Notes under the pieces: model-generated | The model's input: only the letters and a program-made list of their open reading frames with translations | Databases searched by the model: none | What the model was told of the DNA's origin: nothing | NCBI GenBank assembly: GCA_963736115.1 | Contig: CAVTNR010000002.1 | Span: forward strand, 64,001 to 128,000 | Direction: 5' to 3' | Source of the DNA: an uncultured bacterium | Lineage (GTDB): Bacteria > Zhuqueibacterota > QNDG01 > DTFT01 | DNA length: 64,000 nucleotides | Position numbers and translations under genes: made by a program | Shown here: one piece after another, positions 3,156 to 43,668 of the stretch | Numbering within the stretch: position 1 is the first letter of the stretch | Layout of the letters: each line of letters starts with the position of its first letter

Positions 3156-3250
3156 GTACGCTCCGGGTAAACGTTCCGGGCCTTCAATGCGACAGTGTCT
3201 GATAAGTTTGGCCCCGCGCAGCGGGGAGGTTGGGAACCTCCCGGAGCGTT
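3156..3250. repeat. Composite palindromic repeat: acgctccggg/aggtt..aacctcccggagcgtt hairpin carrying a 46-nt insert (3181-3226)
   Basis: An uninterrupted version of the same hairpin is at 58554-58590. Confidence 0.75.
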
Positions 3251-3279
3251 CCGAATACAACGGAACGAGACCGTTCGTT

Positions 3280-3456
3280 TCAGAACCAGGTCCAGTCGTG
3301 ATGAGTGAAAAGATAATACACGACGTAAATCCATCCCAGCAAACCGTGAATCAGTGCCCAGATCACGGCCTTGTTTGCGGTCCACGACAGGATCATGGCC
3401 AGCACAGCCCCGAATCCGATCGACGATCCGGCTAAGATTCCCTTTCTTTCAGCCAT
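3280..3456 (-). CDS. Small hydrophobic membrane protein (58 aa), not in the ORF track
   Basis: RBS AAGGAG, then MAERKGILAGSSIGFGAVLAMILSWTANKAVIWALIHGLLGWIYVVYYLFTHHDWTWF*; two hydrophobic segments. Confidence 0.8.
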   Translation of the reverse strand: MAERKGILAGSSIGFGAVLAMILSWTANKAVIWALIHGLLGWIYVVYYLFTHHDWTWF

Positions 3457-3507
3457 TACATTCTCCTTTCCCGCACACGCTCCGGTGATTCGCGTATCTC
3501 TCGGTGT

Positions 3508-3586
3508 ACGCTCCGGGCCTTCAATGCGATAGCGTCTGATATGCTTGGCCCCGCGCAGAGGGGAGGCTCGGAGCCTCCATGAGCGT
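3508..3586. repeat. Second composite palindromic repeat with a 46-nt insert (3518-3563)
   Basis: Close direct copy of 3156-3250. Confidence 0.75.
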
Positions 3587-3595
3587 GATATAACA

Positions 3596-4696
3596 TCAAT
3601 CCCCCATGCACGTGCCCAACCTGCGGGCCACGTCCACCAAGGGATGGTCGGGGCTGACCAGCCGCATCTTTCCGCCGACGTCGCTCAGCGGAACAGCGAT
3701 GATGTCGTCGCCGCGCAGGGCCACCATGACCCCGGACGCGCCGTTCTGCACGAGCTCGGCCGCCTTGACCCCGAAACGCGTGGACAGGACGCGGTCATAG
3801 GGCGTGGGCGTGCCCCCGCGCTGAAGATGCCCCAGAACAGTGACGCGGCTTTCAAGTGCGGTGCCCTCCTCGATCGCCCGTGCCAGCACCTGTCCGATGC
3901 CGCCCAGCCGAATCGGGTCCGTGCTGGTCTTCACGGTCTGTTTCACCACCAGTTCGCCGCCCTTGGGCCGCGCTCCCTCCGATACCACGACAATGCTGAA
4001 TCGACGTCCCCGCCTGCTCCGGTCCAGGACCGCCGCGCATACTTTCTCGATGTCATACGGGATTTCCGGAATAAGAATCACGTCCCCGCCGCCCGCGATG
4101 CCCGCGGACAGGGTGAGCCAGCCCGCGTACCGGCCCATGAGCTCGATGACCATGACCCGGTGGTGCGACATGGCTGTGGTATGAATGCGGTCAATGGCCT
4201 CGGTCGCGATGGCAACGGCCGTGTCGAAACCGAAAGTGGTGTCCGTGCCCCAGATGTCGTTGTCGATGGTCTTGGGCACGCCCACGATATGCACGCCCTT
4301 CTGTGCGAGACCCTTGGCGATGGCCATGGAACCATCCCCGCCGATGGCCACGATGCACTCGAGACTGAGTTCATCGATGTAACGGACGACGTCGTCGGAA
4401 ACGTCCGCGAATTGGACGTCATCCCCTTCTTTTTTTACCGCCCATTTGAATGGATTGGCCGTGTTCGAGGTGCCGAGAATCGTTCCGCCGATCGTGAGGA
4501 TCCCGGATACCTGCTCCCAATTGAGCGGCATCACCCGTTTTTCGATCAATCCCTGGTAGCCGTCCTCGATGCCGACGATTTCCATGCCATAGGCTCCGAT
4601 ACACGCCTTGGATACGCCGCGGATAACCGCATTCAGGCCCGGACAGTCCCCACCGCCGGTGAGCACACCGATCCGCTTGGATGGTTTTACCGTCAT
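3596..4696 (-). CDS. pfkA: 6-phosphofructokinase (mixed ATP/PPi clade, group III-like)
   Basis: LTGGGDCPGLN, GGTILGT, GGDGS, PKTIDND, MGRYAGW and LGHLQRGG motifs; start chosen after the GGAGG RBS. Confidence 0.93.
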   Translation of the reverse strand: MTVKPSKRIGVLTGGGDCPGLNAVIRGVSKACIGAYGMEIVGIEDGYQGLIEKRVMPLNWEQVSGILTIGGTILGTSNTANPFKWAVKKEGDDVQFADVSDDVVRYIDELSLECIVAIGGDGSMAIAKGLAQKGVHIVGVPKTIDNDIWGTDTTFGFDTAVAIATEAIDRIHTTAMSHHRVMVIELMGRYAGWLTLSAGIAGGGDVILIPEIPYDIEKVCAAVLDRSRRGRRFSIVVVSEGARPKGGELVVKQTVKTSTDPIRLGGIGQVLARAIEEGTALESRVTVLGHLQRGGTPTPYDRVLSTRFGVKAAELVQNGASGVMVALRGDDIIAVPLSDVGGKMRLVSPDHPLVDVARRLGTCMGD

Positions 4697-4757
4697 GATT
4701 GCCTCCATATATGATAAAAAAGTATAGGCATTTTTTATTTTGAAATCAATTTAAATA

Positions 4758-4839
4758 TTGAAGGACCCCGCCGCAAGCAACGGGGGATCGCAAAAAACTT
4801 AGATGATGGACGCCCCAAGCGGCGGGGGATCAGACCCGT
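4758..4839 (+). mobile_element. Degenerate IS200/IS605-like palindromic element without inserts
   Basis: ttgaaggaccccgccgcaagcaacgggggatc...caagcggcgggggatc, same family as 41864-42117. Confidence 0.5.
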
Positions 4840-5001
4840 CGGAGCGGCCAGAAGCCCAATCATCAATCATCCAGAATAACTGGAACCAGAATGACCGGGC
4901 TTCTGGCCGCCCGATTGAGTGGATGCAAGGCGGCCCGGATAACCGGAAACCCTTTGCCCTTCCGCGTCGTTCATACATGGACAGACAGGAGCGGGACGCG
5001 G

Positions 5002-5940
5002 ATGAAACGAAGACATATCCTAATGATTCTAATGGGCTTGGCATTTCTTCAATGCCGGGCCGGAGCGCAGGATCCCATGCCCTACAACAAACTGACCGCG
5101 GAAGAGGAGAGGGTTATTCTCCATAAAGGCACGGAAAGGCCTTTCACTGGCCGTTTCGTCGATCATGATGAAAAAGGGACCTATTCATGCCGCAGATGCG
5201 GGGCTGAGCTGTACCGGTCCGAGGACAAATTCCGGTCGGATTGCGGGTGGCCGAGTTTCGACGATGAGATTCCGGGCGCGGTCAAACGCGTTCCTGACAC
5301 GGACGGCAGACGCATTGAAATCGTCTGTAACCGCTGCGGCGGGCACCTGGGTCACGTGTTCTCCGGCGAGCGACTCACTCCGAAGAACACGCGTCATTGC
5401 GTGAATTCGATCTCAATGGATTTCATCCCCGCGGCCGCCGCTCATGACGCGGCCAGCACGGACACAGCCGTGTTCGCGGCCGGATGCTTTTGGGGCGTGG
5501 AGCATCTATTTGCGGCGGAACCCGGAGTCCTATCCACGACAGTCGGTTACACGGGGGGCCGGAAGGAGAAGCCTTCGTACGAAGAGGTCTGCTCGCACGG
5601 GACCGGGCACGCGGAGGCCGTTGAAGTCGTTTTTGATCCGGCCCGGACGTCCTATGAGAAACTGGCCCGCCTGTTCTTCGAGATACATGACTTCACCCAG
5701 GTGGACCGGCAGGGGCCGGACGTCGGGGACCAGTACCGTTCCGCTGTGTTTTTTAGGAACGGGGATCAGAAACGGATCGCGGAGAACCTGATCCGGGCAT
5801 TGTCGGAAAAAGGACTCAAGGTCGCAACGAAGCTGGAGCCTGTGGAAACGTTCTGGAAGGCCGAGGAGTATCACCAGGACTATTATCGGAAAACCGGTAA
5901 ACAGCCGTACTGTCACTTCAGGAGAAAAGTTTTCGAATAA
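5002..5940 (+). CDS. msrAB: Exported bifunctional methionine sulfoxide reductase MsrB-MsrA
   Basis: Signal-like N-terminus; MsrB motifs GTERPF, CRRC/CNRC, GWPSF, HLGHVF, RHCVNS; MsrA motifs AGCFWG, GHAEAV, QYRS, AEEYHQDY. Confidence 0.92.
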   Translation: MKRRHILMILMGLAFLQCRAGAQDPMPYNKLTAEEERVILHKGTERPFTGRFVDHDEKGTYSCRRCGAELYRSEDKFRSDCGWPSFDDEIPGAVKRVPDTDGRRIEIVCNRCGGHLGHVFSGERLTPKNTRHCVNSISMDFIPAAAAHDAASTDTAVFAAGCFWGVEHLFAAEPGVLSTTVGYTGGRKEKPSYEEVCSHGTGHAEAVEVVFDPARTSYEKLARLFFEIHDFTQVDRQGPDVGDQYRSAVFFRNGDQKRIAENLIRALSEKGLKVATKLEPVETFWKAEEYHQDYYRKTGKQPYCHFRRKVFE

Positions 5941-5967
5941 AATTTTTTGGTCAGATTCAATACAGCT

Positions 5968-6010
5968 GTAGGTCCGAAATGGCCCGCATCTTCTTGCGGG
6001 CCTTTCGGAC
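5968..6010 (+). repeat. GTAGGTCCGA-type REP hairpin
   Basis: gtaggtccgaaatggcccgc-atcttctt-gcgggcctttcggac; near-identical inverted copy at 20394-20436. Confidence 0.7.
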
Positions 6011-6072
6011 GATCACTGCGGATGAAACCCTGAAGGGTAAATCCCAAACATAGAACCTTGAACTGTCTCCCC

Positions 6073-7262
6073 TCAGATCACCCCCAGCTTTCTCCCGATC
6101 CGCGTGAACGCCTCCACAGCGAAATCCAGGTCCGCCGTTTCGTGCCCGGCTGAAACCTGCACGCGTATGCGAGCCTGGCCGCGGGGCACGACAGGGAAGC
6201 AGAAGCCGATGACGTAAACTCCCTCGGCCAGCAGGGCGTCGGCCATGGACAGGGCGCGCCTCTCGTCGTAGAGCATGATGGGCACGATCGGATGGGTTCC
6301 CGGCTTGATGTCGAACCCGGCCGCGGTCATGCGTTTTCCGGAAATGCGCCGTGTTTTTCTCCAGCCGGTCCCGCAATTCGCGTCGTTCCGGAAAGCAGGT
6401 CCAGAACCGCGGATGTGGCTCCCGCCACTACGGGCGCGAGCGTGTTGGAGAAGAGGTAGGGCCGGCTCTTCTGCCTGAGAAATTCGATCATCTCCCCACG
6501 GCCCGCTGCGCATCCTCCGGACGCGCCGCCCAGCGCCTTGCCGAAGGTGGTGGTGACCAGGTCCACCTTGTCCCGCACGCCGAAAAGCTCGGGCGTCCCC
6601 CGGCCCGTGGGGCCGACGAATCCCGTGGCATGGCTGTCGTCCACCATGACAAGCGCGTCGTACCGCCCGGCCAGTTCGCAGATGCGGTCCAGTTTCGCGA
6701 ACGCGCCGTCCATGGAAAACACGCCGTCCGTGGCGATGAGTCGCAGGCGGCTGGACGCGGCTTCCTTCAGCTTGGATTCCATGTCGTCCATGTCGGAATG
6801 AGCGTAAATCAGTCTCTTCGCCTTGGCGAGCCGTATGCCGTCAATGATGGAAGCGTGGTTCAGCGCGTCTGTCAGGATCGCGCAGTCTTCGGAGAGGAAA
6901 GGCTCGAACACGCCGCCGTTGGCGTCGAAACATGCGGCATACAGAATGGCGTCGTCCGTTCCGAGAAAGTCCGCGATTTTCCGCTCGAGTGTCTTGTGGA
7001 GTCCCTGTGTGCCGCAAATAAAACGCACGCTGGACAGACCATACCCCCACCGGTCGAGCGCCTCATGCGCCGCTTCGATCACTTTCGGATGGCTGGAGAG
7101 GCCGAGATAGTTGTTCGCGCAGAAATTGAGGACCTCGCGGCCGTCCGCGAGCCGGATACGCACGGCCTGGGGTCCATCGAGCACGCGCTCGTTTTTATAC
7201 AGCCCCTCGTCCCGGATGCTTTTCAGCTTCGCGGTCAGGTCGTCTTTCAGCTTGCCGTACAT
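6073..7262 (-). pseudogene. kbl: Glycine C-acetyltransferase (2-amino-3-ketobutyrate CoA ligase) with two +1 frameshifts near 6381 and 6335, possibly sequencing errors
   Basis: NFCANNYLGL, SVRFICGT, LNHASIIDG, DDSHATG and TFGKALGG motifs. The C-terminus continues in two other frames (ELRDRLEKNTAHFRK, then RMTAAGFDIKPGTHPIVP...ARIRVQVSA). Confidence 0.9.
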
Positions 7263-7287
7263 TCGATATTCCTTTCTCCCGTAAAAA

Positions 7288-7363
7288 CGCACCCTGAAGG
7301 GTACGGCTACCAAACCATCTCAATATCACGGTAATCTCCGGTAGCCGCAGCCTTTAGGCTGCG
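7288..7363. repeat. Inverted REP doublet (REPIN/BIME-like) downstream of the RAYT gene
   Basis: cgcaccctgaagggtacggctacc, a 28-nt linker, then ggtagccgcagcctttaggctgcg. Confidence 0.9.
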
Positions 7364-7369
7364 CTTTTA

Positions 7370-7864
7370 TTACATTCCCCATGAATTCAAATCGTATACG
7401 GTTGAACCTTTGAACGGATAATCTTTCCATTCTTCCACTATACCCTTACGAACTGGATTGTCGAGTATGTATCCGACATGCCGCTTCAGATCTTCATCCT
7501 TCCTCAACACGTGGTCGTAAAAATCCTTCTGCCATTCAAAACCGGTATTATTTTTCGACATCCAATACCCGGTTTTTTGTTTAAAAAGAACCAGGCATTT
7601 CCGGATATCTGACTCCTCGGTTATCCCCTGAATGGTCAAATGCAGGTGATCAGGCATGAAAAGATAAATATGGGCCTGACAGTCATGACGCTCCAGTTCA
7701 TGAATCAGGATGTCTTTAAAAACAGTGACGAGGGACTGCTTGACGAAGGCTTTTCTTCGGTTCAGAATACAGCAGGTAAACGTCACAACGTTGAATCCTC
7801 GGTACAGGCCGCCATCCAGACGGTGTTTCTTTTCCTGTACAAACCGTGCGGGTTCGTTTGCCAT
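7370..7864 (-). mobile_element. REP-associated tyrosine transposase (RAYT/TnpA-REP, Y1 HUH family), 164 aa
   Basis: MPDHLH (HUH), FKQKTG, WQKDFYDHVLR and YILDNPVRKG motifs; AT-richer than its flanks; bracketed by REPs. Confidence 0.92.
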
Positions 7865-7879
7865 TCTCCCTCCCAAGAA

Positions 7880-8067
7880 CGCACCCTGAAGGGTGCGGCT
7901 ACCCAACCATCCCAATATTACGTTAATATCCGGTAGCCGCAGCCTTTAGGCTACGCAAAAGCGCAAGCTGAAGCTTGCGGCTACCAAACCATCCCGATAT
8001 CACGGTAATCTCCGGTAGCCGCAGGCTTTAGCCTGCGCAAGAACGCACCCTGAAGGGTGCGGCTACC
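7880..8067. repeat. Array of five GTAG-type REPs upstream of the RAYT gene
   Basis: REPs at 7880-7903, 7932-7955, 7962-7985, 8014-8037 and 8044-8067 in alternating orientation; the conserved 28-nt linker occurs twice. Confidence 0.9.
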
Positions 8068-8082
8068 AATGCCCGGCCGCGC

Positions 8083-9117: not shown

Positions 9118-9235
9118 GTCCTCTCCTCTGAACTCTGTCCGTTGCATTCCCGCGGACGAAAGGACCCCTTCGGCCTCCTGAATACCGGGAAGACTCGAAC
9201 CGGCGGAATCGTCCCGACAAGGACGCCGGAACTCT

Positions 9236-10144: not shown

Positions 10145-10287
10145 GGCGGCTTCTCCCGTCCGAATGGGTCAGGTGGCGGCCGGCCGGAACGCCGGGCGGC
10201 GTTCCCGGTCCGGCCGGAAAAGAAAAAGCCGGACGCGACTGCCCCGGCCTGGTGTCAGCGGTGAAACGGACATGGTCGTCCCGGCTG

Positions 10288-11399
10288 TCAGATCAGTTTA
10301 TCGGCCGGTGTGTATTTTAGATCGAACGCCTGGGCGACCGCCGAATGGGTGATCTCGCCCTTGTACATGTTGAGGCCCGTCCGGATCTCCAGAGATGTGC
10401 GGATCAGCACGTCCATCGCGACGTCCGCGATCCGGATGATGTAAGGCAGGGTGGCATTCGTCAGGGCGATAGTGGACGTGTAGGGCACGGCGCCCGGCAT
10501 ATTGGCCACGCCGTAGTGGATCACGCCGTCCACGACGAAGGTCGGATGGTCGTGCGTTGTCGGTTTGGAGGTCTCGATGCACCCGCCCTGATCGACCGAG
10601 ACATCGACGATCACGGAACCCGGACGCAGAAGCGACAGCATGTCGCGGGTCACGAGCCGCGGGGCCTTGGCCCCCACAACCAGGATGGCTCCGATCAGGA
10701 GGTCGGTGAAGGGAAGCAGATCCCGGAGGTTGTACTCGTTGGAAAAGACGGTCACCACGTTTTCGGCATCACGTCCTGGAGATACCGGAGCCGGTTCAAG
10801 TTGCTGTCGAGAATGTACACCTCGGCGCCCATGCCCGCGGCGATCTTGGCCGCGTTCGTCCCCACGACGCCGCCGCCGAGAATGGTGACCACGCCGGGAG
10901 GCGCGCCGGGAACGCCGCCCAGGAGAACGCCGCGGCCCCCGTTGAATTTCTCCAGGAAACGGGCGCCTTCCTGCGTGGCCATACGTCCGGCGACCTCGCT
11001 CATGGGAACAAGAAGCGGCAGACTTCCGTCCGGCAGTTCGACAGTCTCATAGGCGACCGCCGCGGCCCCTGTTTTCTGAAAATCCGCGGTCAGCTGTCTG
11101 TCCGCGGCGAAGTGAAAGTAGGTGAATACGATCTGCCCGCGCCGGATCATCAAAATTTCCGAAGGCTGGGGTTCCTTCACCTTGACGATCATGTCCGCTT
11201 CCCGGAACAAGTCCCCGGCTGTATCGACGAGCAGACAGCCGGCGGACCGATACTGCTCGTCCTGGAAACCGCTGTTCTGTCCGGCTCCTCTCTGGACGAA
11301 AACTCGGTGTCCGCGCTTGGTGAGCTCCGCAGCGCCGTGCGGCGTCATGGAGACGCGGTTTTCCGCGGTCTTGATCTCGGTCGGGACGCCGATTTTCAT
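10288..11399 (-). pseudogene. ald: Alanine dehydrogenase with a 1-nt deletion in an A run near 10760, possibly a sequencing error
   Basis: MKIGVPTEIKTAENRV, KVKEP, FTYFHFAA, PMSEVAGR and GGGVVG motifs, then in another frame VDVSVDQGG and GVANMPGAVP. atg ccg aaa acg tgg tga lacks one A relative to M-P-K-N-V-V. Confidence 0.9.
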
Positions 11400-11422
11400 A
11401 TGGAACTCCTCGCTTAAGACAG

Positions 11423-11446
11423 TTGAATATTCCGGGGAATATTCAA
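11423..11446. promoter_or_regulatory. Perfect 11-bp inverted repeat upstream of ald (candidate operator)
   Basis: TTGAATATTCC-gg-GGAATATTCAA. Confidence 0.45.
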
Positions 11447-11575
11447 ATATATCCATGCATCCTGATAAAGTCAAGATGATGTTATAGGCTGGAAACCGGC
11501 CATTCGGAAATGATGAATCGGACCGACTCGGTTATTCGGGAAAATGACGGAATATTCTGTTCTTCTATTAATTAT

Positions 11576-13476: not shown

Positions 13477-13503
13477 GTCATCCCCGCGCAAGCGGGGATC
13501 CAG
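13477..13503. repeat. GTCATCCCCGCG-type REP palindrome (empty form)
   Basis: gtcatccccgcgcaagcggggatccag. Confidence 0.75.
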
Positions 13504-19941: not shown

Positions 19942-19950
19942 TACCGGATC

Positions 19951-20091
19951 CGAATCTGTCAGCGAGCGTATTCCCCGGCTTCGCCGGACCAAGCTATCGG
20001 ATTATTTCATTATTGAAGGCCCGCGGCTTGTCTTCAATAACTTAGAAATACAATAGCTTGATCCCGCGCAGCGGGCGGCGGGGAGCTTCAA
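19951..20091 (-). mobile_element. IS200/IS605-like palindromic element carrying two 45-46 nt inserts (19974-20019, 20031-20075)
   Basis: Reverse complement reads ttgaagctccccgccg[ins]caagccgcggg[ins]gaatacgctcgctgacagattcg. Confidence 0.7.
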
Positions 20092-20100
20092 TCCAGTCAG

Positions 20101-20130
20101 GCCGGCTCCATTGGAGCCGGCTTTTTTATT
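20101..20130 (+). terminator. Rho-independent terminator
   Basis: gccggctcc-att-ggagccggc followed by TTTTTTATT. Confidence 0.75.
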
Positions 20131-20159
20131 CATCAAACGCATGCGGACCCGCCCCCTCC

Positions 20160-20436
20160 GTGGGTCCGAACTGCCTCGCATCCTCTCGGCGAGGCTATCG
20201 GCCATAAGGGATATCAGTTCCGAGTTCCATGTCTGCGACATCGAATTGGTTTTCCGTAGGGGCGACGCGGCGCGGCGCCCCTACAATCCGGTCGGACAGG
20301 GATATGGATTTCAGATGAGGCCGTAGGTCCGATATGCCGAGTCCCGCATTTACGGGACGAGGCTATCGGACAAAAAAAGCCTCCTCCGGAAGCGTCCGAA
20401 AGGCTCGCTGGGATGCGCGAGCCATTTCGGACCTAC
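20160..20436. repeat. Cluster of GTAG/GTGG REP hairpins
   Basis: Hairpins at 20160-20203, 20256-20284 (gtaggggcg...cgcccctac), 20323-20371 and inverted 20394-20436. Confidence 0.7.
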
Positions 20437-20520
20437 GCTTGCCAGGCCAGGGAGCCATCCGAACTTATTCGGAGAGGCAGATCGGACCCTCTGGACAATT
20501 GTGACAAAAAAGAAAAATAC

Positions 20521-23873: not shown

Positions 23874-25868
23874 TCAGTATACTCGTATCGGCATGATGAC
23901 GACCGGAATGGCCTCGAAATGCAGTTTCCGTTGAACGGAGAAAATCGTGTAATTGTGCAGCCAGCGGTAGACGAAGGAGTCCTTCGAAAAAACGAGCTGG
24001 CCGCCGAAGAAGACGGCACCCGGGTATTTTTTCTGGAGTTTCACGGCCAGATCGACCATTTCGTCGACCACGTCGACGCCGATACCGGTCGCGGTTTCGG
24101 CATAAAATCCGTGCTGTTTCATGTACCGGACGTACCGGTCCGCATCGGCCTCCAGCTGTTTCTCAAGCGCCTTGATCTCTTCCGTGCTCCTGAAATTCGC
24201 CGCGTCGACCACTCCAACCCGGACAAACACGAAGTTGCGGAACAGGCCGGAAAAGCCCTTGATCACAGAGAACAAAGTGTGCAGACCCAGGCCGTTGAAT
24301 CCGTTGACGAAGATGACAGCGGTCTTGCCCTTGGGATGACGGCGCACGGACTTGCGTTTCCGGCCCTCGCCATTCTCGGTCAGGGGCACGGAAGGTTCGG
24401 TCACGGGCACCAGCGTGTCCAGGCGCTTCAGCATCTTCTGAACCCGGCCGTAATGACTGCGGACCTTGATGAAAAATGCAGCCAGCACGCCGGTGACGAT
24501 CAGCGTGATCCAGCCGCCTTCATGAAATTTAACCGCCACGACGCTGACGAGGATGAAACTGGTCACCACGAGACCCGTCCCATTGACCAAGAGGCGGCTG
24601 ATCCAGTCCCGATTCCGTCCCCGGTCCCGCAGGGCCTCCCGCACCATGCCCAGCTGGGAGAGGGAAAACGTGATGAACACATTGATGGAATACAGAATGA
24701 CGAGAATGCGCACCGATCCGCCAGTCAGCAGAACAACGGCCAGTGCCGAAACGCCGAGGATCAGCACGCCGTTCTGCGTGACGAAACGGTCCGACAGGGT
24801 TGAAAAACGCGTGGGCACCCAGCGGTCGGTCGCCATGTTGGCCAGCACGCGGGGCCCGCCCAGAAAACCGGTCTGCGCGGCCACGAACAGGAGAACCGCC
24901 TCGGACAGGAGGGTGACAAGCACGAAAACACGACCGGGCGCGCCCCAGCTCCGGGTGATGCTCTCGAACAGAACGGCGTTCAGGGTTTTGCCCGGCTGGA
25001 ACTCGACCTGGTACAACAGATAAGCCACCATCAGGCCCACGGCCATGACCGCCAGGGAAACGGCCATGTACAGCATGGTTCTCTTCGCGGTTTTCACGCG
25101 CGGCTCGCGGAGAATCGGCATGCCGTTGCTGACCGCCTCGATTCCGGTGTAGGTGCCGGCGCCCATGCTGAACGAACGCAGGATGATGAACAGCATGCCG
25201 GCCGCCCCGACTTCGGCCCGGGTCGTGGCCACATCCGCCGATACGCTGGACACGACGGAGGGGAGCTGCATGAGATGGGTCACCAGCGCCACGCCGATGG
25301 CCGCCAGATGGGTTACGATGAAAGTCAGAAAAATGGGAACGATCGGAGCCACTGACTCCCGGACGCCCCTCAGGTTCAGCAGAATCAGCAGAAATACGGA
25401 CAGCACGATGACGACAATGCGGTACGGGAGCCATTCGGACGGCAGAAAACTGAAGAGAGCGTCCGCGCCGCTGGACACGGACACCGCGATGGTCAGCACA
25501 TAATCGATCAGAAGCGCCGAACCGGCCACCATCCCGAGCCCCGGAGAGAGCAGTTTCGAGGCCACAATATAACCGCCTCCGCCCGAGGGGAAACGCTCGA
25601 TGATCTGCATGTAGCTGGCGCTGATGATGAAAATCGTGAAAGCGGACAGAAGCGCAACGATCAGGGAAAGCGCATAATGCCCGTTGAGACCCAGATAGGC
25701 TTCCTGCGGACCGTAACAGGCCGAGGAAATGCCGTCCGCGCCGAGTCCCACCCATGCAAGCAGGGCCACAAGCGACAGCTTGTGAAAAATATTTCGGTCG
25801 TGGAGGTCGCGTTCTTTACCGACGAGCAGGCGGATGAGACGCTGAGGGAGTGTCGGACGGGGCGTCAC
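23874..25868 (-). CDS. APC-superfamily permease, KimA/YdaO-like (paralog 2)
   Basis: AWVGLGADGISSACYGPQE, FPSGGGGY, DYVLT, TGIEAVSNG motifs. GTG 25868 chosen because it aligns with the start of the paralog. Confidence 0.85.
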   Translation of the reverse strand: MTPRPTLPQRLIRLLVGKERDLHDRNIFHKLSLVALLAWVGLGADGISSACYGPQEAYLGLNGHYALSLIVALLSAFTIFIISASYMQIIERFPSGGGGYIVASKLLSPGLGMVAGSALLIDYVLTIAVSVSSGADALFSFLPSEWLPYRIVVIVLSVFLLILLNLRGVRESVAPIVPIFLTFIVTHLAAIGVALVTHLMQLPSVVSSVSADVATTRAEVGAAGMLFIILRSFSMGAGTYTGIEAVSNGMPILREPRVKTAKRTMLYMAVSLAVMAVGLMVAYLLYQVEFQPGKTLNAVLFESITRSWGAPGRVFVLVTLLSEAVLLFVAAQTGFLGGPRVLANMATDRWVPTRFSTLSDRFVTQNGVLILGVSALAVVLLTGGSVRILVILYSINVFITFSLSQLGMVREALRDRGRNRDWISRLLVNGTGLVVTSFILVSVVAVKFHEGGWITLIVTGVLAAFFIKVRSHYGRVQKMLKRLDTLVPVTEPSVPLTENGEGRKRKSVRRHPKGKTAVIFVNGFNGLGLHTLFSVIKGFSGLFRNFVFVRVGVVDAANFRSTEEIKALEKQLEADADRYVRYMKQHGFYAETATGIGVDVVDEMVDLAVKLQKKYPGAVFFGGQLVFSKDSFVYRWLHNYTIFSVQRKLHFEAIPVVIMPIRVY

Positions 25869-25965
25869 GGGGGGGAGATCGTCCTTATTTTTTGTTTTTT
25901 CTTGAATTGCGTACTGGATCCCATATATGAAAAATACGACATTTGGAATCGACAAGCAAGGGGAA

Positions 25966-27960
25966 TCAATACACGCGGATCGGCATGATCATCACCGGAA
26001 TCCCCTCAAAATGGAGCCGCCGATGCACTGAAAAAATAGTGTAATTGTGAAGTGCCCGATGGAGAACCGATTCCCTGGAGAAGACGAGCTGTCCCCCGAA
26101 AAACATCGGATTCGGATACTCCGCCTGGATGCGTTTCGCCATCCGCATGATCTCATCGACCACATCCACCCCCACCGAATAAACGCCTTCCGCATAGATA
26201 CCGTGCTTTTTCATGTAATCGACGTACTTCTCACCCTCCTCCTCGAGGCGCCTGTCGATCGCCCGGATGTCCTTCTGTCCCTTGAAATTCCCCGCGTCCA
26301 CCACGCCGACCTGCACGAACACAAAATTGGTGAAAAATCCCGGGAACTGCCGGATGATGGAGAAGAGCGTGTGCAGGCCCAGTCCGTTGAAACCGTTGAC
26401 GAACAGCACGGCCGTGCGGCCCTTCGCATTCAGCTTCAGTCGTTTCACGCCCCGCGCCGGCTTTTCAGTGGGAGCGAGCAGGGACGATTCCGTGACCGAA
26501 ACGAGGCCGTCCAGCCGCTTCAGCATCTTCTGCACCTTGCCGTAATGCCGTTTGACCAGGGAGAAGAAGACGAACAACCCGCCGGTCACCAGCAGTGTGA
26601 TCCATCCCCCCTGGTTGAACTTCAGCACGGTCACCGTAATCAGAATGAACAACGTCAGGGTAAGACCGACGCCGTTGACGGCCAGTTTTCCCGCCCAGCC
26701 CCTGGCTTCGCGGCGCGATTGCCACCAGTGCCGCACCATGCCGAGCTGGGACAGTGAAAAGGTGATGAACACATTGATGGAGTACAGCACCACGAGCAGG
26801 GTCACCGAACCGGCAGTGGCAACCACGAGCGCCATGGCGGCGAGTCCCATGATGAGTATGCCGTTCTGGGTGACCAGACGGTCCGACAGGGTCGCGAAAC
26901 GGGTGGGTACCCAGCGGTCCCCGGCCATGTTGGACAGGACGCGGGGTCCGTCGAGAAATCCCGTCTGCGCGGCGACAAAGAGCAGAACGGCCTCGGACAG
27001 GAGGGTCAGCAAAACGAAACGGGGTCCCCATGCACCCCATCCTCGCGTAATGGTTTCGAACAATACCGCGTTCAGCGTTTTGCCGGGCACATGCTCAACC
27101 TTGTATAATATGTAGGCCAGCATCAGACCGAAGACCATAAAGGCCAGGGATCCGGCCATGTAGGCCATGGTCCTCTTGGCGGTCTGAACCTTGGGTTCGC
27201 GCAGGACGGGAATGCCGTTGCTGACCGCCTCGATTCCGGTGAACGTGCCCGCTCCCATGCTGAACGAACGGAGGATCAGCAGCACCATGCCCGTCACGCC
27301 CAGAGTGGCGCTCGTGGCGCGCACATCCGCCGAAACCGTGGCCGTCACTTCCGGAAGCTTGAACAGGTGAGTGACAACGGCGAGGATGATCACACCCAGA
27401 TGGGTGATGATAAAAACCAGAAAAATGGGAACGATCGGAAGAACCGATTCCCTGACACCCCTCAAGTTAACCAGGATGAGAACCAGAACGCCGAGCAACG
27501 CGAAACCGATCCGGTAGGAATGCCAGGCCGGCGGCAGAAAACTGAACAGAGCATCCGCGCCGGACGAAACGGAAACGGCGATCGTCAGAACGTAGTCGAT
27601 GAGCAGGGCGGACCCGGACAGCATGCCGGTTCTCGGCGAAAGCAGGCGGGTGGCGACCAGATACCCGCCCCCGCCGCTTGGAAACAGCTCGATAATCTGG
27701 GAATAACTCGCGCTGATAACCAGGATGGTGACCACGCTGAGCAGGGCGACGATGAGCCCCAGGGCGTGGTGCGAACCCAGCACCACGAAAGCTTCGGCAG
27801 GGCCATAGCATGATGAACTGATCCCGTCCGAACCCAGCCCAACCCAGGCGAAAAATGCGATCAGGGACAGTTTATGGAAGAGATTTTTATCCCGGACGTC
27901 CCGGCTTTTACCGATAAAAATCCGCTTGAGGCGGGATTTCAGTGAATAATTGGTCTCCAT
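25966..27960 (-). CDS. APC-superfamily permease, KimA/YdaO-like (paralog 1)
   Basis: AWVGLGSDGISSSCYGPAE, FPSGGGGY, DYVLT and TGIEAVSNG motifs, plus a cytoplasmic C-terminal domain. Confidence 0.85.
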   Translation of the reverse strand: METNYSLKSRLKRIFIGKSRDVRDKNLFHKLSLIAFFAWVGLGSDGISSSCYGPAEAFVVLGSHHALGLIVALLSVVTILVISASYSQIIELFPSGGGGYLVATRLLSPRTGMLSGSALLIDYVLTIAVSVSSGADALFSFLPPAWHSYRIGFALLGVLVLILVNLRGVRESVLPIVPIFLVFIITHLGVIILAVVTHLFKLPEVTATVSADVRATSATLGVTGMVLLILRSFSMGAGTFTGIEAVSNGIPVLREPKVQTAKRTMAYMAGSLAFMVFGLMLAYILYKVEHVPGKTLNAVLFETITRGWGAWGPRFVLLTLLSEAVLLFVAAQTGFLDGPRVLSNMAGDRWVPTRFATLSDRLVTQNGILIMGLAAMALVVATAGSVTLLVVLYSINVFITFSLSQLGMVRHWWQSRREARGWAGKLAVNGVGLTLTLFILITVTVLKFNQGGWITLLVTGGLFVFFSLVKRHYGKVQKMLKRLDGLVSVTESSLLAPTEKPARGVKRLKLNAKGRTAVLFVNGFNGLGLHTLFSIIRQFPGFFTNFVFVQVGVVDAGNFKGQKDIRAIDRRLEEEGEKYVDYMKKHGIYAEGVYSVGVDVVDEIMRMAKRIQAEYPNPMFFGGQLVFSRESVLHRALHNYTIFSVHRRLHFEGIPVMIMPIRVY

Positions 27961-28169
27961 GACGCCTTTTCGTTCCAATCTAAGAAAATATAAAACAGAA
28001 ACTTAAAACATGCCATCCTGCGGAAAACGATGAGAAAGATACAGAATATAATGCCTGGAAGCAAGTTAATTCGCTCAAAACCCCCTATTCTGTCCGGGCC
28101 CGACGGACTGAATGCCCTCCCTGGCCCGGCCCGCCGGAGAGGAGAGCAGGCCGGACCGGGAGGATCCTT

Positions 28170-35892: not shown

Positions 35893-35957
35893 TTGAAGCT
35901 CCCCGCCGCCCCGCTATTCGGGACCGGGGAATGCGCTCGCTGTCAGATTCGGTCAAC
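35893..35957 (+). mobile_element. Short IS200/IS605-like palindromic element
   Basis: ttgaagctccccgccg...ggggaatgcgctcgctgtcagattcggtcaac. Confidence 0.6.
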
Positions 35958-35970
35958 AGGAGGATTCCGA

Positions 35971-38746: not shown

Positions 38747-38841
38747 TGAAGAAGAATGGAACGCGGACAGCGCGGACGTCATGGCGGCGCGGATTGACAC
38801 GGATAGACGGGCAATATGGTAATGCATTAATTGTAGGGCAT

Positions 38842-38893
38842 GTCATCCCCGCGGAAGTGTCTTTTTCATCCGCGTCAGCGGACGGGGATCCAG
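38842..38893. repeat. GTCATCCCCGCG-type REP with a 25-nt insert
   Basis: gtcatccccgcggaag[tgtctttttcatccgcgtcagcgga]cggggatccag. Confidence 0.75.
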
Positions 38894-39022
38894 AGCGGGG
38901 TGAGGGGCTGTTGAGTGGCTTTCTATAACAACTCCCCCGCAATCACATTGAAAACACAAGGGCCCGTCCCGGACATCGGAACAGGCCCCTTCCATTTTCT
39001 TGAATAGACAGACCGCCTCGCC

Positions 39023-39445
39023 TCACGGCGTCACTGGGGCGGACTCCATGACCGATTCCGGGACCCCCGCATACGCCCGCATCGTGCGGAGCAGGTCGTC
39101 GATTTCGGCCTGGGTGATCTGCTGATCCGACAGAACGGCGAAAACCCGTGCCCCCAGTAGCTGGACGTCGTCCGGCGTGATGCGGTTTTCGGAATACGCC
39201 CGCGCGAAGGCCTGGGCCGTCACCGCGATGTCGTCCTGCTTCTGCCCGATGTATTCCTTCGGAGCCGTGGCCACGGTTTTCTCTATCATCCGACTGACCT
39301 GCGGATACGCCACCTTCGTCATCACGGCCTGCGGATTTTTCATGACGTATCGCGCCGCAAGAATACCGGCAAGCGACAGAAGGAGGATGCCGGTGAAAAA
39401 TCCGACAAAGAACATGCCTGCTTTGGAAAAATGACCGTTGCTCAT
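39023..39445 (-). CDS. Hypothetical membrane-anchored protein
   Basis: RBS GAAAGGAAG; N-terminal TM (FFVGFFTGILLLSLAGILAA) and a helical C-terminus. Confidence 0.65.
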   Translation of the reverse strand: MSNGHFSKAGMFFVGFFTGILLLSLAGILAARYVMKNPQAVMTKVAYPQVSRMIEKTVATAPKEYIGQKQDDIAVTAQAFARAYSENRITPDDVQLLGARVFAVLSDQQITQAEIDDLLRTMRAYAGVPESVMESAPVTP

Positions 39446-39603
39446 TTTTCTTCCTTTCTGATGTAACAGAATGACTCTTCGGTGAACGCGGACCCGGTCC
39501 GCCGTGCTCCGTGCTCCGTGCGCATTGCGTATTGCGCTATGAGATATGCATGAATAATCCCGGCCTTCGGACGCCCTTCCGGGCCGGGCCTCCGGAAAAC
39601 CCC

Positions 39604-40617
39604 CTACCACACCCCGTCGATGACCGACGCGCATTTCGGGCACCGGCCCTCCCGGATGCGGTTCGCGGTCACCTGAAACCCCTCCCGCTCGACAAGAACT
39701 GCGTTGCATTTCCAGCAGAACGTGATCTCGCTCTCGTCCCCGGGCATGTTGCCGGCGTACCGGTACCGCAAACCCTCGCGGCGCCCGATCTCCAGCGCCT
39801 TGCGCACGGATCCGGCCGGCGTGGCCGGACGGTCCGTCATCCGGTACTGGGGAAAAAACCGGCTCACATGCCAGGGGATGGCCGGATCCACGGACCGGAT
39901 AAAACCCGCGATGTCGGACAGTTCGGACTCGGAATCATTGATCCCGGGGATGAGCAGGGTCGTGACCTCAACCCATACGCCGAGGGCCCGCATCAGCCGG
40001 ATGGCGTCCAGAACAGGTTTGAGCGTGGCCCCGCAGATCCGGCGGTATGTTTCTTCCCTGAACGACTTGATGTCCACGTTCGCGGCGTGCAGAACAGGAG
40101 CCGCGGCCCGTATTGATTCCTCGCTGAAATACCCGTTCGTGACAAAAGTATTGAAAAGGCCGCGCCTGGCGGCCAGGGTCGCAGTATCCAGGGCGTAATC
40201 GAAGAATACCGCGGGTTCCGTGTAGGTGTAGGAGAGGATGCGCGCCCCGGAAGCCACGGCCGCCTCGACGACCGCCTCAGGCGGGAAGTCGTGTCCTTCG
40301 TCCGGGATCCAGGCCCTTCCGCGCGGCGCCTGCGAGAGTTCCGAATTCTGGCAGTTCAGGCAACTCATGTTGCATCCCGCCGTGGCCACGGAAAACGCCT
40401 TCTCACCGGGATGGAAGTGGAAAAATGGTTTCTTCTCGACGGGATCCGTGTGCGCCGCGACGGCGCGGCCGTACACGAGGCTGAACAGGGCGCCATCGTG
40501 GTTTTCCATGACTCCGCAGACGCCCCGTTTTCCCTCCGCAATCACGCACCTGTGGGCGCAGGTGAAACAAGAGACGCGTCCGCCTTCCATCCGGGTGTAA
40601 TGTCGGGCTTCCTTCAT
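39604..40617 (-). CDS. amrS: AmmeMemoRadiSam system radical SAM enzyme
   Basis: CFTCAHRC..GVCG, DPVEKKPFFHF, GCNMSCLNCQN, YTYTEP, PWHVSRFFPQY and C-terminal CxxC pairs. Confidence 0.9.
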   Translation of the reverse strand: MKEARHYTRMEGGRVSCFTCAHRCVIAEGKRGVCGVMENHDGALFSLVYGRAVAAHTDPVEKKPFFHFHPGEKAFSVATAGCNMSCLNCQNSELSQAPRGRAWIPDEGHDFPPEAVVEAAVASGARILSYTYTEPAVFFDYALDTATLAARRGLFNTFVTNGYFSEESIRAAAPVLHAANVDIKSFREETYRRICGATLKPVLDAIRLMRALGVWVEVTTLLIPGINDSESELSDIAGFIRSVDPAIPWHVSRFFPQYRMTDRPATPAGSVRKALEIGRREGLRYRYAGNMPGDESEITFCWKCNAVLVEREGFQVTANRIREGRCPKCASVIDGVW

Positions 40618-40633
40618 TCCGGTCTCCGCCCGT

Positions 40634-41191
40634 TCAGGCGTCTCCTTCGGACGCCACCGTCAGATCCTTGAAACGTTTTTCGAAAACCTCGAAGGCGGCG
40701 CGATCGACGAGGCAGAAAACCACATGACCGATGGACCGGTGCGAACGGACGAATTCCAGGACGGTTCCGAGCATAACCGCGGCGCAGCGTTCCATAGCCA
40801 CGCCGAAGACGCCGGTGCTGACCGCGGGAAAGGCGACCGACCGGAGATTGTGCTTCTCCGCGGTTTCGAGGCAGGACAGCGTGGCCAGCCGGAGCTTGAT
40901 GTCCTCGTCCCCCTCGCCCATGCGCGGCCCGACCGTGTGAATGACGTACCGGGCCGCCAGTTTCCCGGCGCCGGTGATCGCGCAGGAGCCCGTGGGCACC
41001 GTGCCCCGGATCGTCACCCAGAGATCGCTCTCCTCCTGAATGGTCGGCCCGCCTTTCATGGCGATGGCGGCCGCCACCCCGCCGCCGTGGGAGAGCCGGG
41101 AATTCGCGGCGTTCACGATGGCATCGGTTTCCATTTCCGTGATGTCGCGGACCGCGATCTCCACGACCGTTTCACCGATGGTCCGCTTCAT
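40634..41191 (-). CDS. Macro domain (ADP-ribose-binding/YmdB-like) protein
   Basis: DAIVNAANSRLSHGGGVAAAI, VIHTVGP and AFPAVSTGVFG motifs. Confidence 0.9.
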   Translation of the reverse strand: MKRTIGETVVEIAVRDITEMETDAIVNAANSRLSHGGGVAAAIAMKGGPTIQEESDLWVTIRGTVPTGSCAITGAGKLAARYVIHTVGPRMGEGDEDIKLRLATLSCLETAEKHNLRSVAFPAVSTGVFGVAMERCAAVMLGTVLEFVRSHRSIGHVVFCLVDRAAFEVFEKRFKDLTVASEGDA

Positions 41192-41787
41192 GCCGGTTCC
41201 CCGGAACGGTTCCGGTTGCGGTCTTTCCGAACGCCCCTGCGGGAAGCCAGGTCCTCCGCCGTCCGCCAAACCCTCAGCACGGCCCATGCAATCAGAACGC
41301 CCGCCAGGAACCCGACCGCGACATCGGACGGATAATGAACGCCCACGACAATGCGCGAGAGACCGATGCAGAACGCGATGAAGGCAACGGGCCATCCCCA
41401 CCGGCCGTGTCGGACGCAGAACAGGCAGGCCATGGCCGCGGTGTTGGCGGCATGGGAGGAGGGAAAGGACCGGGAGTGCGGCTGGGAGATGAGAAGCCTC
41501 ACGTGTTCCAGCGTGTAGCACGGCCGGTCGCGGCCGACGAGCGGCTTGATGACGAAATTCACGATCTGGTCGGAGAAAACCAGAATGACCACCGCGAGCG
41601 CGGCCGTGATGCGCCCTTTTCTCCCGCCGAACACCACCAGCGCCAGAACGCCCAGGACAATGGGCGCGATCCAGTGCTCCTCTTCCGTAATGAACGGCAT
41701 CACGGCGTCGAGCACCGGATTCGCGATGTTCCGGTTCAGGAAATGAAAAACGGCCTTGTCGACGGAATACAGGAAATCGGCGATCAT
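41188..41787 (-). CDS. PAP2-family phosphatase (undecaprenyl-PP phosphatase-like)
   Basis: KPLVGRDRP, SFPSSH and SRIVVGVHYPSD motifs. Confidence 0.9.
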   Translation of the reverse strand: MIADFLYSVDKAVFHFLNRNIANPVLDAVMPFITEEEHWIAPIVLGVLALVVFGGRKGRITAALAVVILVFSDQIVNFVIKPLVGRDRPCYTLEHVRLLISQPHSRSFPSSHAANTAAMACLFCVRHGRWGWPVAFIAFCIGLSRIVVGVHYPSDVAVGFLAGVLIAWAVLRVWRTAEDLASRRGVRKDRNRNRSGEPA

Positions 41788-41863
41788 CAGGCTTTTCCCT
41801 GCCCCAGTGCTTGATAAATTCCCGACCTTCTAAAAAGAACCCCGCCGGAGGCCTGGCAGCTGA

Positions 41864-42117
41864 TTGAAGCTCCCCGCCGTCCCGCTGCGCGGGACCAAGC
41901 AATTAGATGCCTTCTGATTGAAGGCAAGCGGCGGGGAATCTTCTATCTGTAGAGAAGAAACATCTGAGATTCGCTCGCATAACCCCGCGGCCCCGCTGCG
42001 CGGGATCTAGCAATCATACTTACGAATTATTGAAGACAAGCCGCGGGCCTTCAACAAGAAAAGATCTTGTTGCTTGGTCCCGCGCAGCGGGGGAATACGC
42101 TCGCTGTCAGATTCAAC
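41864..42117 (+). mobile_element. Longest IS200/IS605-like palindromic element, carrying three 45-46 nt inserts
   Basis: TTGAAG left end, two ccccgcNg-caa-gcNgcgggg hairpins and a TTCAAC right end; inserts at 41880-41924, 41991-42036 and 42048-42092. Confidence 0.75.
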
Positions 42118-42173
42118 GGGGATATCGATCCTTCATAAATTAGCATTTGTTCGGGCGGGAGTCAACACATTCC

Positions 42174-43442
42174 TTACGCGAACACAACGCGCTTGTGACG
42201 TTTCTTGCCCGCAGACAGGACCAGGGCCCCGTCTTTCAAGTCCGCGGACGAGATCTCGAGGGAGGGGTCGCTCACGGGCCTGTCGTTGATGTAGGCGCCG
42301 CCGCCCTGGATGAGACGCCGGGCCTCGCCGTTCGAGGCGCACATTCCGGACTCCACGAACAGCTTCACCACCCAGAGCTTCTTGTCCAGGAGGGAGACGG
42401 GCAGGGTCACGGCAGGCAGTTCCGCCTGGCCGGACTCCACGCCGAGAATGCCGGACGATGTGGCGACCTTTTGTTCCGGGTCCGCGGAGCCGAACTGCGA
42501 GGTCATGGAGCGGTATGCGGCCACGGCCTGCTCACGTCCGTGGGACAGCCGGGTTGCTTCGTAAGCGAGAATCTCCTTGGCCCGGTTGACATTCTCCCCG
42601 GTCAGCCGCCGGACCTCGTCCATGGGGAGCCGCGTGAAGAGGCCGAGATACCGCTCGACATCCCGGTCGTCGGTGTTGCGGAAGTACTGGTAGAAGTCCA
42701 CGACGGGCGTGCGGGCCGCGTCAAGCCAGACGGCATTGCCCGCGGACTTGCCGAATTTTTCGCCCGACGCGGTGGTGATGAGCGGGAAGGTCATTCCGTA
42801 CACCTGGCGGTTGAGCTTGCGCCGCGTCAAGTCGGACCCCGCCACGATGTTGCCCCACTGGTCCTGGCCGCCCATCTGAAGCAGGCAGTCATGGTCGCGG
42901 GCCAGCACGTAGAAGTCGTACGCCTGAAGCAGCATGTAATTGAATTCGATGAAGGACAGCCCGGTCTCAAGCCGGAGCTTGACGCTTTCCGCCGTAAGCA
43001 TCTTGTTGATGCTGAAATGCACCCCCACGTCGCGCAGGAATTCGATGTAGTTCAGTGGAAGAAGCCAGTCCGCGTTGTTGAGCAGAAGCGCCCGGTCGGC
43101 GGTGAAGTCGAGGTACCGGGCGAACTGGCTTTTGATTTTCAGGCCGAACGCCTGGATCTTTTCGACGGTGAGCATCTGCCGCATTTCGGACTTACCGCTC
43201 GGATCGCCCACCATGGTCGTACCGCCGCCCAGAAGCGCGATCGGCCGATGGCCGCAGGACTGCATGTGGACCAGGGCCATGATGGGCACCAGACTGCCGA
43301 TGTGCAGGGAATCCGCGGTCGCGTCGAATCCGATATAGCAGGTCACGGGCTTCGAGCCGAGCATGGCGTCGAGGCCGTCGTCGTCGGTCGTCTGGTGGAG
43401 GAAACCCCGTTCTTTCAGGATGCGGAAGGCGTTGCCCGTCAT
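42174..43442 (-). CDS. tyrS: Tyrosine--tRNA ligase
   Basis: GFDATADSLHIGS, QAYDF, GGQDQWGN and KFGKS motifs; C-terminal S4 domain. Confidence 0.96.
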   Translation of the reverse strand: MTGNAFRILKERGFLHQTTDDDGLDAMLGSKPVTCYIGFDATADSLHIGSLVPIMALVHMQSCGHRPIALLGGGTTMVGDPSGKSEMRQMLTVEKIQAFGLKIKSQFARYLDFTADRALLLNNADWLLPLNYIEFLRDVGVHFSINKMLTAESVKLRLETGLSFIEFNYMLLQAYDFYVLARDHDCLLQMGGQDQWGNIVAGSDLTRRKLNRQVYGMTFPLITTASGEKFGKSAGNAVWLDAARTPVVDFYQYFRNTDDRDVERYLGLFTRLPMDEVRRLTGENVNRAKEILAYEATRLSHGREQAVAAYRSMTSQFGSADPEQKVATSSGILGVESGQAELPAVTLPVSLLDKKLWVVKLFVESGMCASNGEARRLIQGGGAYINDRPVSDPSLEISSADLKDGALVLSAGKKRHKRVVFA

Positions 43443-43485
43443 TCGGTCTCCGGTGTCATGAGTGATTTCCGAATCTACACTTCAT

Positions 43486-43668
43486 GTCATTCCCGCGAAA
43501 GTTTCATTTTGAATCCGCGTCAGCGGACGGGGATCCAGTCTTTGTATTACTTCTATAATAGCCTCGGCAGACCCTTCCCCCGCACCTGGACCTTCGGCCG
43601 CTTAAAAATCGCGGGCCTTCAATATATCGAGAATATAATCGCTTGGTCCCGCGCAAGCGGGGCATGAC
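43486..43668. repeat. REP pair: left arm with a 26-nt insert (43502-43527), right arm with a 47-nt insert (43616-43662)
   Basis: gtcattcccgcgaaag[ins]cggggatccag ... cgcggg[ins]catgac. Confidence 0.7.

Follow-up and report, generated by a model that had tools for sequence, protein, structure and literature searches.

The 64,000-nt stretch of DNA analyzed here (positions 64,001 to 128,000 of contig CAVTNR010000002.1, assembly GCA_963736115.1, from an uncultured bacterium of the phylum Zhuqueibacterota) is referred to as the window. It is part of a 3.34-Mb assembly of 31 contigs, hereafter this genome. The window carries eight copies of a short element that consists of a left box (a pyrimidine, Y, followed by CTTCAA), an AT-rich core, a right box TTG-R-T (R, purine), and a terminal hairpin. 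This element is a real, gene-less unit of about 42–47 nt with ~170 copies in this genome. The evidence below documents precise insertion without target duplication, strand specificity, nesting of the element within itself, pairing of its two ends, and movement of cargo DNA. We put at roughly 50% the probability that a folded single strand or a circle is the mobile form of the element and that it is cut and rejoined in trans by an HUH enzyme of the Y1 type, similar to IS200 transposases or to the transposases associated with repetitive extragenic palindromic (REP) sequences (RAYT).

Copy number and distribution

The element had been described in an original prediction made from the letters of the window. 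A genome scan with the pattern given there was far above chance, with 80 exact matches in this genome and 0 in the reversed control; when up to two mismatches were allowed, there were 186 matches compared to 4 in the control. Depending on the pattern, 166–186 copies were counted (reversed control, 0–4). The set of 166 copies used below excludes the window copies at 3181 and 3518 because its pattern demands a T after R. Only 19 of the 166 copies lay within crude long open reading frames (ORFs), although such ORFs span 82% of the genome. A covariance model was trained on 70 copies, including the eight window copies. In the window it recovered all eight at E < 1e-6 and nothing more below E = 0.23; across the class, 14 of the 31 genomes gave matches.

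The exact pattern was present in 8 of 41 genomes. Three congeners had 50, 44, and 36 exact matches, and about 100 or more copies each. Viral contigs gave 84 loose matches, two with a loose hairpin and none element-like. Two apparent distant carriers were discarded: L082 (labeled Saprospiraceae) had a single atypical match near the chance level of the pattern, and the flanks of L074 (labeled Leptospirales) were 87%–95% identical to this genome, so it is probably a mis-binned contig. A search of the window with Rfam returned one tRNA and no match to the element. In the literature searched, mostly papers open without subscription and without their supplements, neither the 45-nt element nor its kinase-site form (see below) was described.

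Precise insertion and target sites

The most direct view of an insertion is the copy at 43616–43662 (forward strand, C-G type as defined below, 17-nt core, 4-nt loop). It lies in a dimer of CGTC/TGTC-type REPs (43485–43669, no strand assigned), as seen in the comparison with the related genome G001; the repeat family is described in PMC3733652. The orthologous site of G001 (L180) keeps the host but lacks exactly these 47 nt. This copy is a precise insertion without target duplication. The concern that orthologous loci might never lack the insert does not hold at this site, and the predicted non-autonomous insertion was borne out by filled and empty orthologous sites without target duplication. 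A 45-nt skip at 42044–42090 in the sequencing runs was not used as an empty site; its sides are 26–28 nt and may stem from other host copies. Both flanks of 48 of the 82 relatives' loci were found in this genome, and the element was present here too in 5 of these 48.

The base at −1 of the insert was G in 148 of 166 copies. Among 177 target tetranucleotides, CTTG (61), CGGG (49), and GAAG (10) prevailed, with others being rarer; NATG, TTTG, and GTGG were found in other lineages. Empty sites rebuilt by removal of the insert folded better than random G sites (mean −10.0 vs −7.3 kcal/mol), and at least six spanning pairs were formed in 104 of 132 rebuilt sites, compared to 491 of 1000 random ones; the copies behind these figures are not independent of one another. 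The use of loops was strand specific: on the CTTG strand, 34 were filled and 38 empty, whereas on the CAAG strand 2 were filled and 39 empty. Hairpins are preferred as targets, not required. The enrichment in hairpins thus agrees with the predicted hairpin targeting, while exclusivity does not, as copies also occur in kinase codons, in a T-rich repeat, and in a tRNA D-loop in other lineages. Nor are there three host families as proposed; the contexts of 132 copies formed 27 clusters, 19 of them singletons, and the element's own loop was among the hosts.

Pairing of the two ends

The first base Y and the R of TTG-R-T varied together. In the 166 copies, the combinations were C-G (107), T-A (49), T-G (4), C-A (4), and other (2), so that the pair was of Watson-Crick type in 156 of 166 own copies; the same was true for 137 of 141 copies in relatives' loci. 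Y:R was the strongest covarying pair in every core class, with average product-corrected (APC) scores of 0.55, 0.49, and 0.62 compared to ≤0.21 for other pairs. A shuffle test on the Y:R pair counts is inflated by kinship among the copies. Both the C-G and T-A types were found within each core class and within both the CTTG and GAAG target types. The T.G wobble was tolerated at this pair.

Head-to-tail junctions between copies provided a view of joined ends (28 rows, three of them probably due to chance). A purine preceded Y in 25 rows, and all 10 rows with A before Y were perfect G..A|C stems. Y was not matched to the R of the unit before it (GT 8, AC 3), and therefore it is the two ends of one and the same unit that make up the Y:R pair. 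At the junction, T faces a purine and R:Y covaries, as might be expected if these two bases acted as guide bases 3 and 4. Taken from these alignments, the two ends of the element appear to pair like the guide and cleavage site of an HUH enzyme. A CAA:TTG helix was rejected as a requirement: it is invariant in the element's own alignment, and the left box of the copies at kinase sites, CTTCCT, disrupts it. Because of this CTTCCT box, CTTCAA is also not an IS605 right-end cleavage site.

Anatomy of the core and hairpin

Contrary to the nearly invariant core length proposed originally, core length was trimodal, with 14, 16, and 17 nt in 23, 59, and 76 of 177 copies and a range of 12–20 nt. The cores had also been regarded as mostly unrelated in sequence. 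Within each length class, however, mean identity was 0.59 compared to 0.25–0.36 in shuffles, and the median nearest-neighbor identity was 0.88–0.93. For the six window cores tested, a neighbor elsewhere was identical at 13–17 of 16–17 positions. Only 1 of 109 distinct cores had an exact match outside called elements, which, together with their homology, contradicts the suggestion of a captured short sequence. Copies nested in the element's own loop belong to the 14-nt class (14 of the 15 in that cluster). A covariation test revealed no helix inside the core. Judging by these comparisons, the AT-rich core is best described as an inherited spacer of three homologous length classes and not as captured DNA. 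Of the 127 copies with a core of the 16- or 17-nt class, 86 had a TATAAT-like hexamer; no −35 box was evident at the proper spacing, and a promoter in the core was set aside.

The terminal hairpin was closed in 132 of 166 copies, with a 5-bp stem and mostly a 3-nt loop; most of the open hairpins were nested insertions or stems with one mismatch. The covariation of the stem noted originally was seen again in the closed hairpins (CCCGC/GCGGG 102, CCGGC/GCCGG 17, GCCGC/GCGGC 5, and CCAGC/GCTGG 3). GNA triloops, which are stable in DNA, occurred in 93 of 132 hairpins. The 3′ end follows structure: GCCGC variants close with GCGGC, and some copies have an additional A or G.

Copies in the window and their host repeats

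All eight window copies agreed with the original prediction in coordinates, strands, cores, and boxes, as did their positions after CGGG (five copies) or CTTG (three copies); the three empty host hairpins (58554–58590, 4758–4789, and 13477–13503) also exist. Two decayed C-G copies with 17-nt cores lie on the forward strand at 3181–3226, where the copy is old, and at 3518–3563. Both are located within ACGCTCCGGG-type palindromes (about 3169–3250 and about 3506–3586, respectively). At the site orthologous to the first one in G001 (L196), the element is truncated and rearranged and is followed by a second host left arm, which restores the host hairpin. For the 3518 copy, a syntenic orthologue was looked for in G001 and G003, and none was found.

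Two further copies share a shortened palindrome-associated transposable element (PATE) of the IS200/IS605 type, recognized by reading the sequence (19955–20091, forward strand). The C-G copy at 19974–20019 (reverse strand, CCGGC/GCCGG hairpin) sits in the host arm on the host's opposite strand, and its core recurs identically at another locus; the T-A copy at 20031–20075 (forward strand) occupies the CTTG loop. The stretch 19959–20491 is missing from G001. Three copies are carried by a second IS200/IS605-type PATE (41864–42111, reverse strand), which follows TTGAA, ends with TTCAA, and has two hairpins and no target duplication. A C-G copy with a 16-nt core and an extra 3′ A (41880–41924, reverse strand) occupies the CTTG loop at the PATE right end, a T-A copy with a 17-nt core and an extra 3′ G (41991–42036, reverse strand) occupies the CTTG loop at the left end, and a C-G copy with a 16-nt core (42048–42092, forward strand) lies in a PATE arm on the opposite strand. 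The whole PATE is absent from the orthologous site of G001, and also from one contig of run X2.

Such PATEs are the main host in this genome. They follow TGAA (13 of 19 left ends), end with TTCAA, and have two hairpins and no duplication, and their GATT and CATT guides presumably fit TCAA and TGAA under the IS608 pairing rule. Compared with the family features given in the accessible parts of PMC6006769 and PMC10055086, the main host behaves, as far as sequence tells, as an IS200/IS605-type PATE. It is abundant genome-wide; an IS200-type TnpA was not found in this assembly, nor a PATE-flanked one in five relatives. Other hosts are the GTAG REPs of this genome's RAYTs, CGTC-type REPs, and the element's own loop. 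In another family, the host is a T-rich repeat cut at TTTG. In the flanks of this family (f6; L006, L013, L017, L005, and L012), more nested mini-palindromes of other families were seen beside the T-rich repeat.

A kinase-site form in relatives

A metagenome scan and covariance-model search revealed copies after the kinase codons GGN-ATG|GG in other families of the phylum; the protein concerned is a Pkinase match. The kinase-junction pattern occurred in 13 of 167 phylum genomes, none of them in the family of the window; the reversed control gave 0 matches. Y:R was a Watson-Crick pair in 23 of the 24 kinase-site copies scored. Among 25 distinct copies, three were simple insertions of 43–46 nt at ATG|GGC without target duplication, whereas in 16 a short linker came next and then the first 20 kinase codons once more, continuing into an intact kinase; six were assigned to neither group. 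A separate count gave a second start in 14 of 19. The long unit of 113–116 nt comprises the element, a relic of the target codons, a ribosome site, and the first 20 kinase codons. The linker looks like what is left of the codons that follow in the target, and GGGAGG ahead of the new ATG comes from the hairpin end. The second start carried by the long unit would keep the gene working.

One empty site was available for the long unit. L413 of genome G160, the orthologue of L391 (genome G157), shares the upstream DNA of L391; in L413, the first N-terminus is fused directly to the kinase body, and the two loci differ by a 115-nt indel; the first N-terminus copy is therefore the native one. In this family, four cargo copies from three species matched each other at 55–58 of 60 nt, compared to 24–40 for their own upstream copy. 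When 18 kinases were compared, six of them cargo-bearing, the best N-terminal match was another cargo in 6 of 6 (0.92–0.97), whereas the best body match was a plain kinase in 5 of 6. On the body tree, which is short and has three long-branch rows, the cargo label changed six times, and at least three changes were forced by well-supported branches. The empty orthologue and the near-identical cargo on unrelated kinase bodies indicate that the cargo moves.

In four loci (L268, L338, L392, and L403), the reading frame of the orphan N-terminus runs on across the element and stops in an ATGA overlap with the new start, possibly as a coupled leader peptide; in other kinase-site copies it stops earlier. 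Other small hairpin inserts were seen in frame in kinase N-terminal codons (L413, 30 nt; L389, L398, and L442). In a single case at a contig end (L406:1382–1544), a tRNA-Val gene has the element in its D-loop, followed by a relic, a spacer, and the full tRNA, a layout that appears to be the same disrupt-and-restore arrangement as in the kinases.

Search for the enzyme

Genes for Y1 enzymes were found in all six carrier genomes searched. The original prediction had proposed the RAYT gene of the window (7370–7864, reverse strand) as a mobilizer. This candidate was rejected: the gene lies between its own GTAG repeats, and the element uses such repeats as hosts elsewhere in the genome. The region 7300–8070 as a whole, with the RAYT between its own repeats, is a REPtron. 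A HUH or recombinase gene with the same ends as the element had also been envisaged; none bounded by the element was found in Y1, Y2, or GIY-YIG loci. An IS91-like Y2 transposase was found in 0 of 5 family genomes and in 6 of 31 genomes of the class (incomplete metagenome-assembled genomes, MAGs), and there was none in this genome, where its positive control was silent; such an enzyme was therefore discarded.

An autonomous parent with the same ends was looked for among right-box matches. Of 121 matches in this genome, 97 were accompanied by the exact left box at a suitable distance; for the remaining 24, the left box was in nearly all cases degenerate or slightly shifted. Among the 102 metagenome matches listed, 36 had a left box and most of the others resembled chance matches in coding DNA. 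No long form was present among the matches listed. Tandem arrays in G004 and L336 had no enzyme gene alongside. The mobilization by an HUH enzyme that had been proposed is in keeping with the HUH-like geometry of the two ends; a cognate enzyme was not found, and the HUH assignment remains an inference.

Other features of the window

Two housekeeping genes (6073–7313 and 10288–11474) are apparently each split over two frames, possibly by assembly frameshifts; we take them to be a kbl-type aminotransferase and an alanine dehydrogenase. A large membrane transporter lies at 23874–27978 as two tandem paralogues, and the tRNA gene found with Rfam at 44346–44429.

Proposed mechanism and alternatives

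In the mechanism that we favor, the joined ends of the element would form one stem, G-R-T-(5 bp)-loop-(5 bp)-(A/G)|Y-C. The T-G-R-T at the hairpin foot would act as a guide, with its third base pairing with +1 and its fourth with −1, as the rule demonstrated for RAYTs has it (PMC8266576, as far as its accessible text goes). An HUH Y1 enzyme encoded elsewhere would cut between the purine and Y. Many copies ride on IS200/IS605-type PATEs or have hit them repeatedly. A cut or joint further downstream on the right would take flanking DNA along, comparable to the capture of a downstream boundary or 3′ flank by TnpA that is described in the accessible part of PMC10055086. In kinase-rich relatives, such flank capture would have yielded the 113–116-nt unit that gives the hit gene a new intact start.

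Several observations weigh against this mechanism. The Y:R pair was present in the lowest-energy circular fold of only 75 of 132 copies. No enzyme gene was bounded or flanked by the element, with three model matches in 60 Y1/Y2/GIY-YIG loci; all three Y1 genes of this genome score as RAYTs, each with its own repeats, and both the Y1 genes read in 12 relatives' loci and the five small GIY-YIG genes of this genome carry other repeats. The target base at +1 is not fixed, and so the guide rule leaves the target and the right-hand cut unexplained. Since 102 of 132 copies fell into three of the 27 context clusters, independent insertions are far fewer than copies. A clean indel of the element alone was seen once in the window; among the 48 orthologous pairs from relatives there was none, and in most of these the host was absent as well. 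The 3′ junction of the kinase cargo was ragged (about codon 13 to 23), which would also be expected from homologous recombination, and the difference in codon usage between cargo and body was not significant (p = 0.46, n = 12). Circular forms of the element were not seen.

Some of these points would fit a history in which a few old insertions were made by a now-lost enzyme, and later spread occurred by hitch-hiking on PATEs and by gene conversion among repeats or kinase paralogues. The crowding of copies into three contexts, the coming and going of whole hosts, the ragged cargo junction, and the age of the 3181 copy are all in its favor. It is at odds with the 19 singleton contexts and the precise indel at 43616, with the presence of both Y:R types and several core classes inside one context, and with the maintenance of the Y:R pair in distant families. 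We regard this history as a lesser, though real, possibility.

It is unlikely, and slightly more so, that the folded single strand is moved by a small stand-alone GIY-YIG nuclease together with host repair, in which case the element would be a split relative of the CGTC/TGTC repeats. In this genome, three of five small GIY-YIG genes lie within 700 nt of an element, compared to 8.7% of ORFs (p about 0.006). Relatives did not show this proximity (their 30 GIY-YIG loci yielded 1 match), and GIY-YIG genes were found in 40 of 41 genomes, carriers or not. Moreover, a hydrolytic nuclease by itself joins no ends. The stems of CGTC/TGTC repeats, like the joined stem of the element, begin with R-T and end with A-Y, and two of the small GIY-YIG genes (G000 C8:41063–41287 and C26:17760–17978) are flanked by such repeats, one of them by long tandem arrays with an A|T junction. 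As the accessible text of PMC3733652 reports no transposase next to CGTC repeats and no enzyme for them, these two genes may encode the mobilizer of that family. A further small GIY-YIG gene (L241; G000 C15:2041–2290) lies between tRNA-Ser genes, and partial tRNA copies nearby have other mini-hairpin inserts in the T-loop.

The element could also be the substrate of a recombinase that reads folded single-stranded DNA or small circles, such as an integron-like tyrosine recombinase or an IS110-like enzyme, or of an undescribed enzyme. Ends defined by structure and the lack of a cognate Y1 among the genes found would suit this explanation; the targets, which share little beyond the G at −1, do not, and we consider it quite improbable. 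Movement through RNA, as a self-splicing mini-intron or by reverse transcription, would account for the meeting of both ends at a single junction and for the tolerated T.G wobble; it is very unlikely, given that reverse transcriptase (RVT_1) was found in 0 of 5 family genomes and 9 of 31 genomes of the class (MAGs 76%–96% complete), that Rfam gave no match, and that nearly all copies lie outside long ORFs. Constant boxes around a short variable part might also suggest guides or spacers taken up from other DNA (CRISPR-, TIGR-, or TnpB-like) or a bipartite binding site for a transcription factor. Both are largely refuted by the homology of the cores, only 1 of 109 of which has an exact match outside called elements, and by insertion polymorphism and self-nesting.

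Relation to known mobile repeats

The comparisons below rely on the accessible parts of the papers cited. The element resembles REP/RAYT systems (PMC8266576 and PMC6006769) in its short GC-rich hairpin, in the tetranucleotide at the 5′ foot whose bases 3 and 4 would pair at the cut, and in being strand specific, intergenic, and present in hundreds of copies. It differs in its tag (TGRT, not GTAG/GTGG) and junction (purine|Y, not C|T), and in that it ends at the hairpin foot, has a 14–17-nt spacer, inserts into REPs, and flanks no enzyme gene. With CGTC REPs (PMC3733652), it shares a stem of joined ends that opens with R-T and closes with A-Y, a C-rich tail, and the lack of a known transposase. 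In the chromosome, however, the stem of the element is split between A and Y, its tag is TTG instead of CGTC/TGTC, and it occurs as single units and nests instead of head-to-head dimers. CGTC REPs are defined by an unbroken 8–9-bp stem with a tail, whereas the 8-bp stem of the element exists only across the joined ends.

The absence of target duplication, the covariation of guide and junction, and a possible 3′-flank capture are reminiscent of IS200/IS605 elements and PATEs (PMC6006769 and PMC10055086). In contrast to these, the element has one hairpin instead of a left and a right one, no covarying helix in the core, and no fixed target tetra- or pentanucleotide, and its covarying base lies inside the element at +1. 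Like REPINs (PMC3116915), it is miniature and non-autonomous and inserts into or beside its own kind; it is not an inverted REP doublet, is half the size, and a single 47-nt unit forms the indel. The same paper names the SDR elements of Nostoc. The element lacks the terminal inverted repeats and target duplication of miniature inverted-repeat transposable elements, and its cores are not unique spacers matching other DNA, as in CRISPR, TIGR, or omega-RNA guide arrays. The SDR elements, reportedly described by Elhai et al. in 2008, are said to resemble the element in being tiny, structured, site-specific, and nested and in having no known enzyme, and to be about twice as long. Some prophages and integrative elements bring along a copy of part of the gene that they target, which stays intact; they are kilobase-sized and have an integrase. 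The kinase form likewise brings a replacement piece, but it is only 113–116 nt of non-coding DNA and replaces the 5′ end.

The element works like REP/RAYT and IS200/IS605 derivatives and yet departs from what defines them in its tag, cognate gene, two ends, and fixed target. With considerable reserve, we suggest that it could be a class of its own: a minimal mobile element of single-stranded DNA, i.e., a 42–47-nt dumbbell whose ends would be set only by base pairing, whose enzyme would be tied to no repeat, and which would take downstream DNA along, up to a 115-nt protein-free form in kinase-rich bacteria that would spread among the members of a gene family and, by swapping in its own ribosome site and N-terminus, let each host gene survive.

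Few units for which precise insertion is directly evident are as small as this element, and the Y:R pair, with its naturally occurring compensatory changes, offers a ready substrate for finding the enzyme. It also bears on how enzyme-less palindromic repeats, such as CGTC REPs and SDR elements, spread. In the kinase form, a non-coding unit of ~115 nt inserts at a conserved codon site shared by a large gene family, and the hit gene stays intact through a replacement start. Such a unit would shuffle N-termini and expression signals among paralogues.

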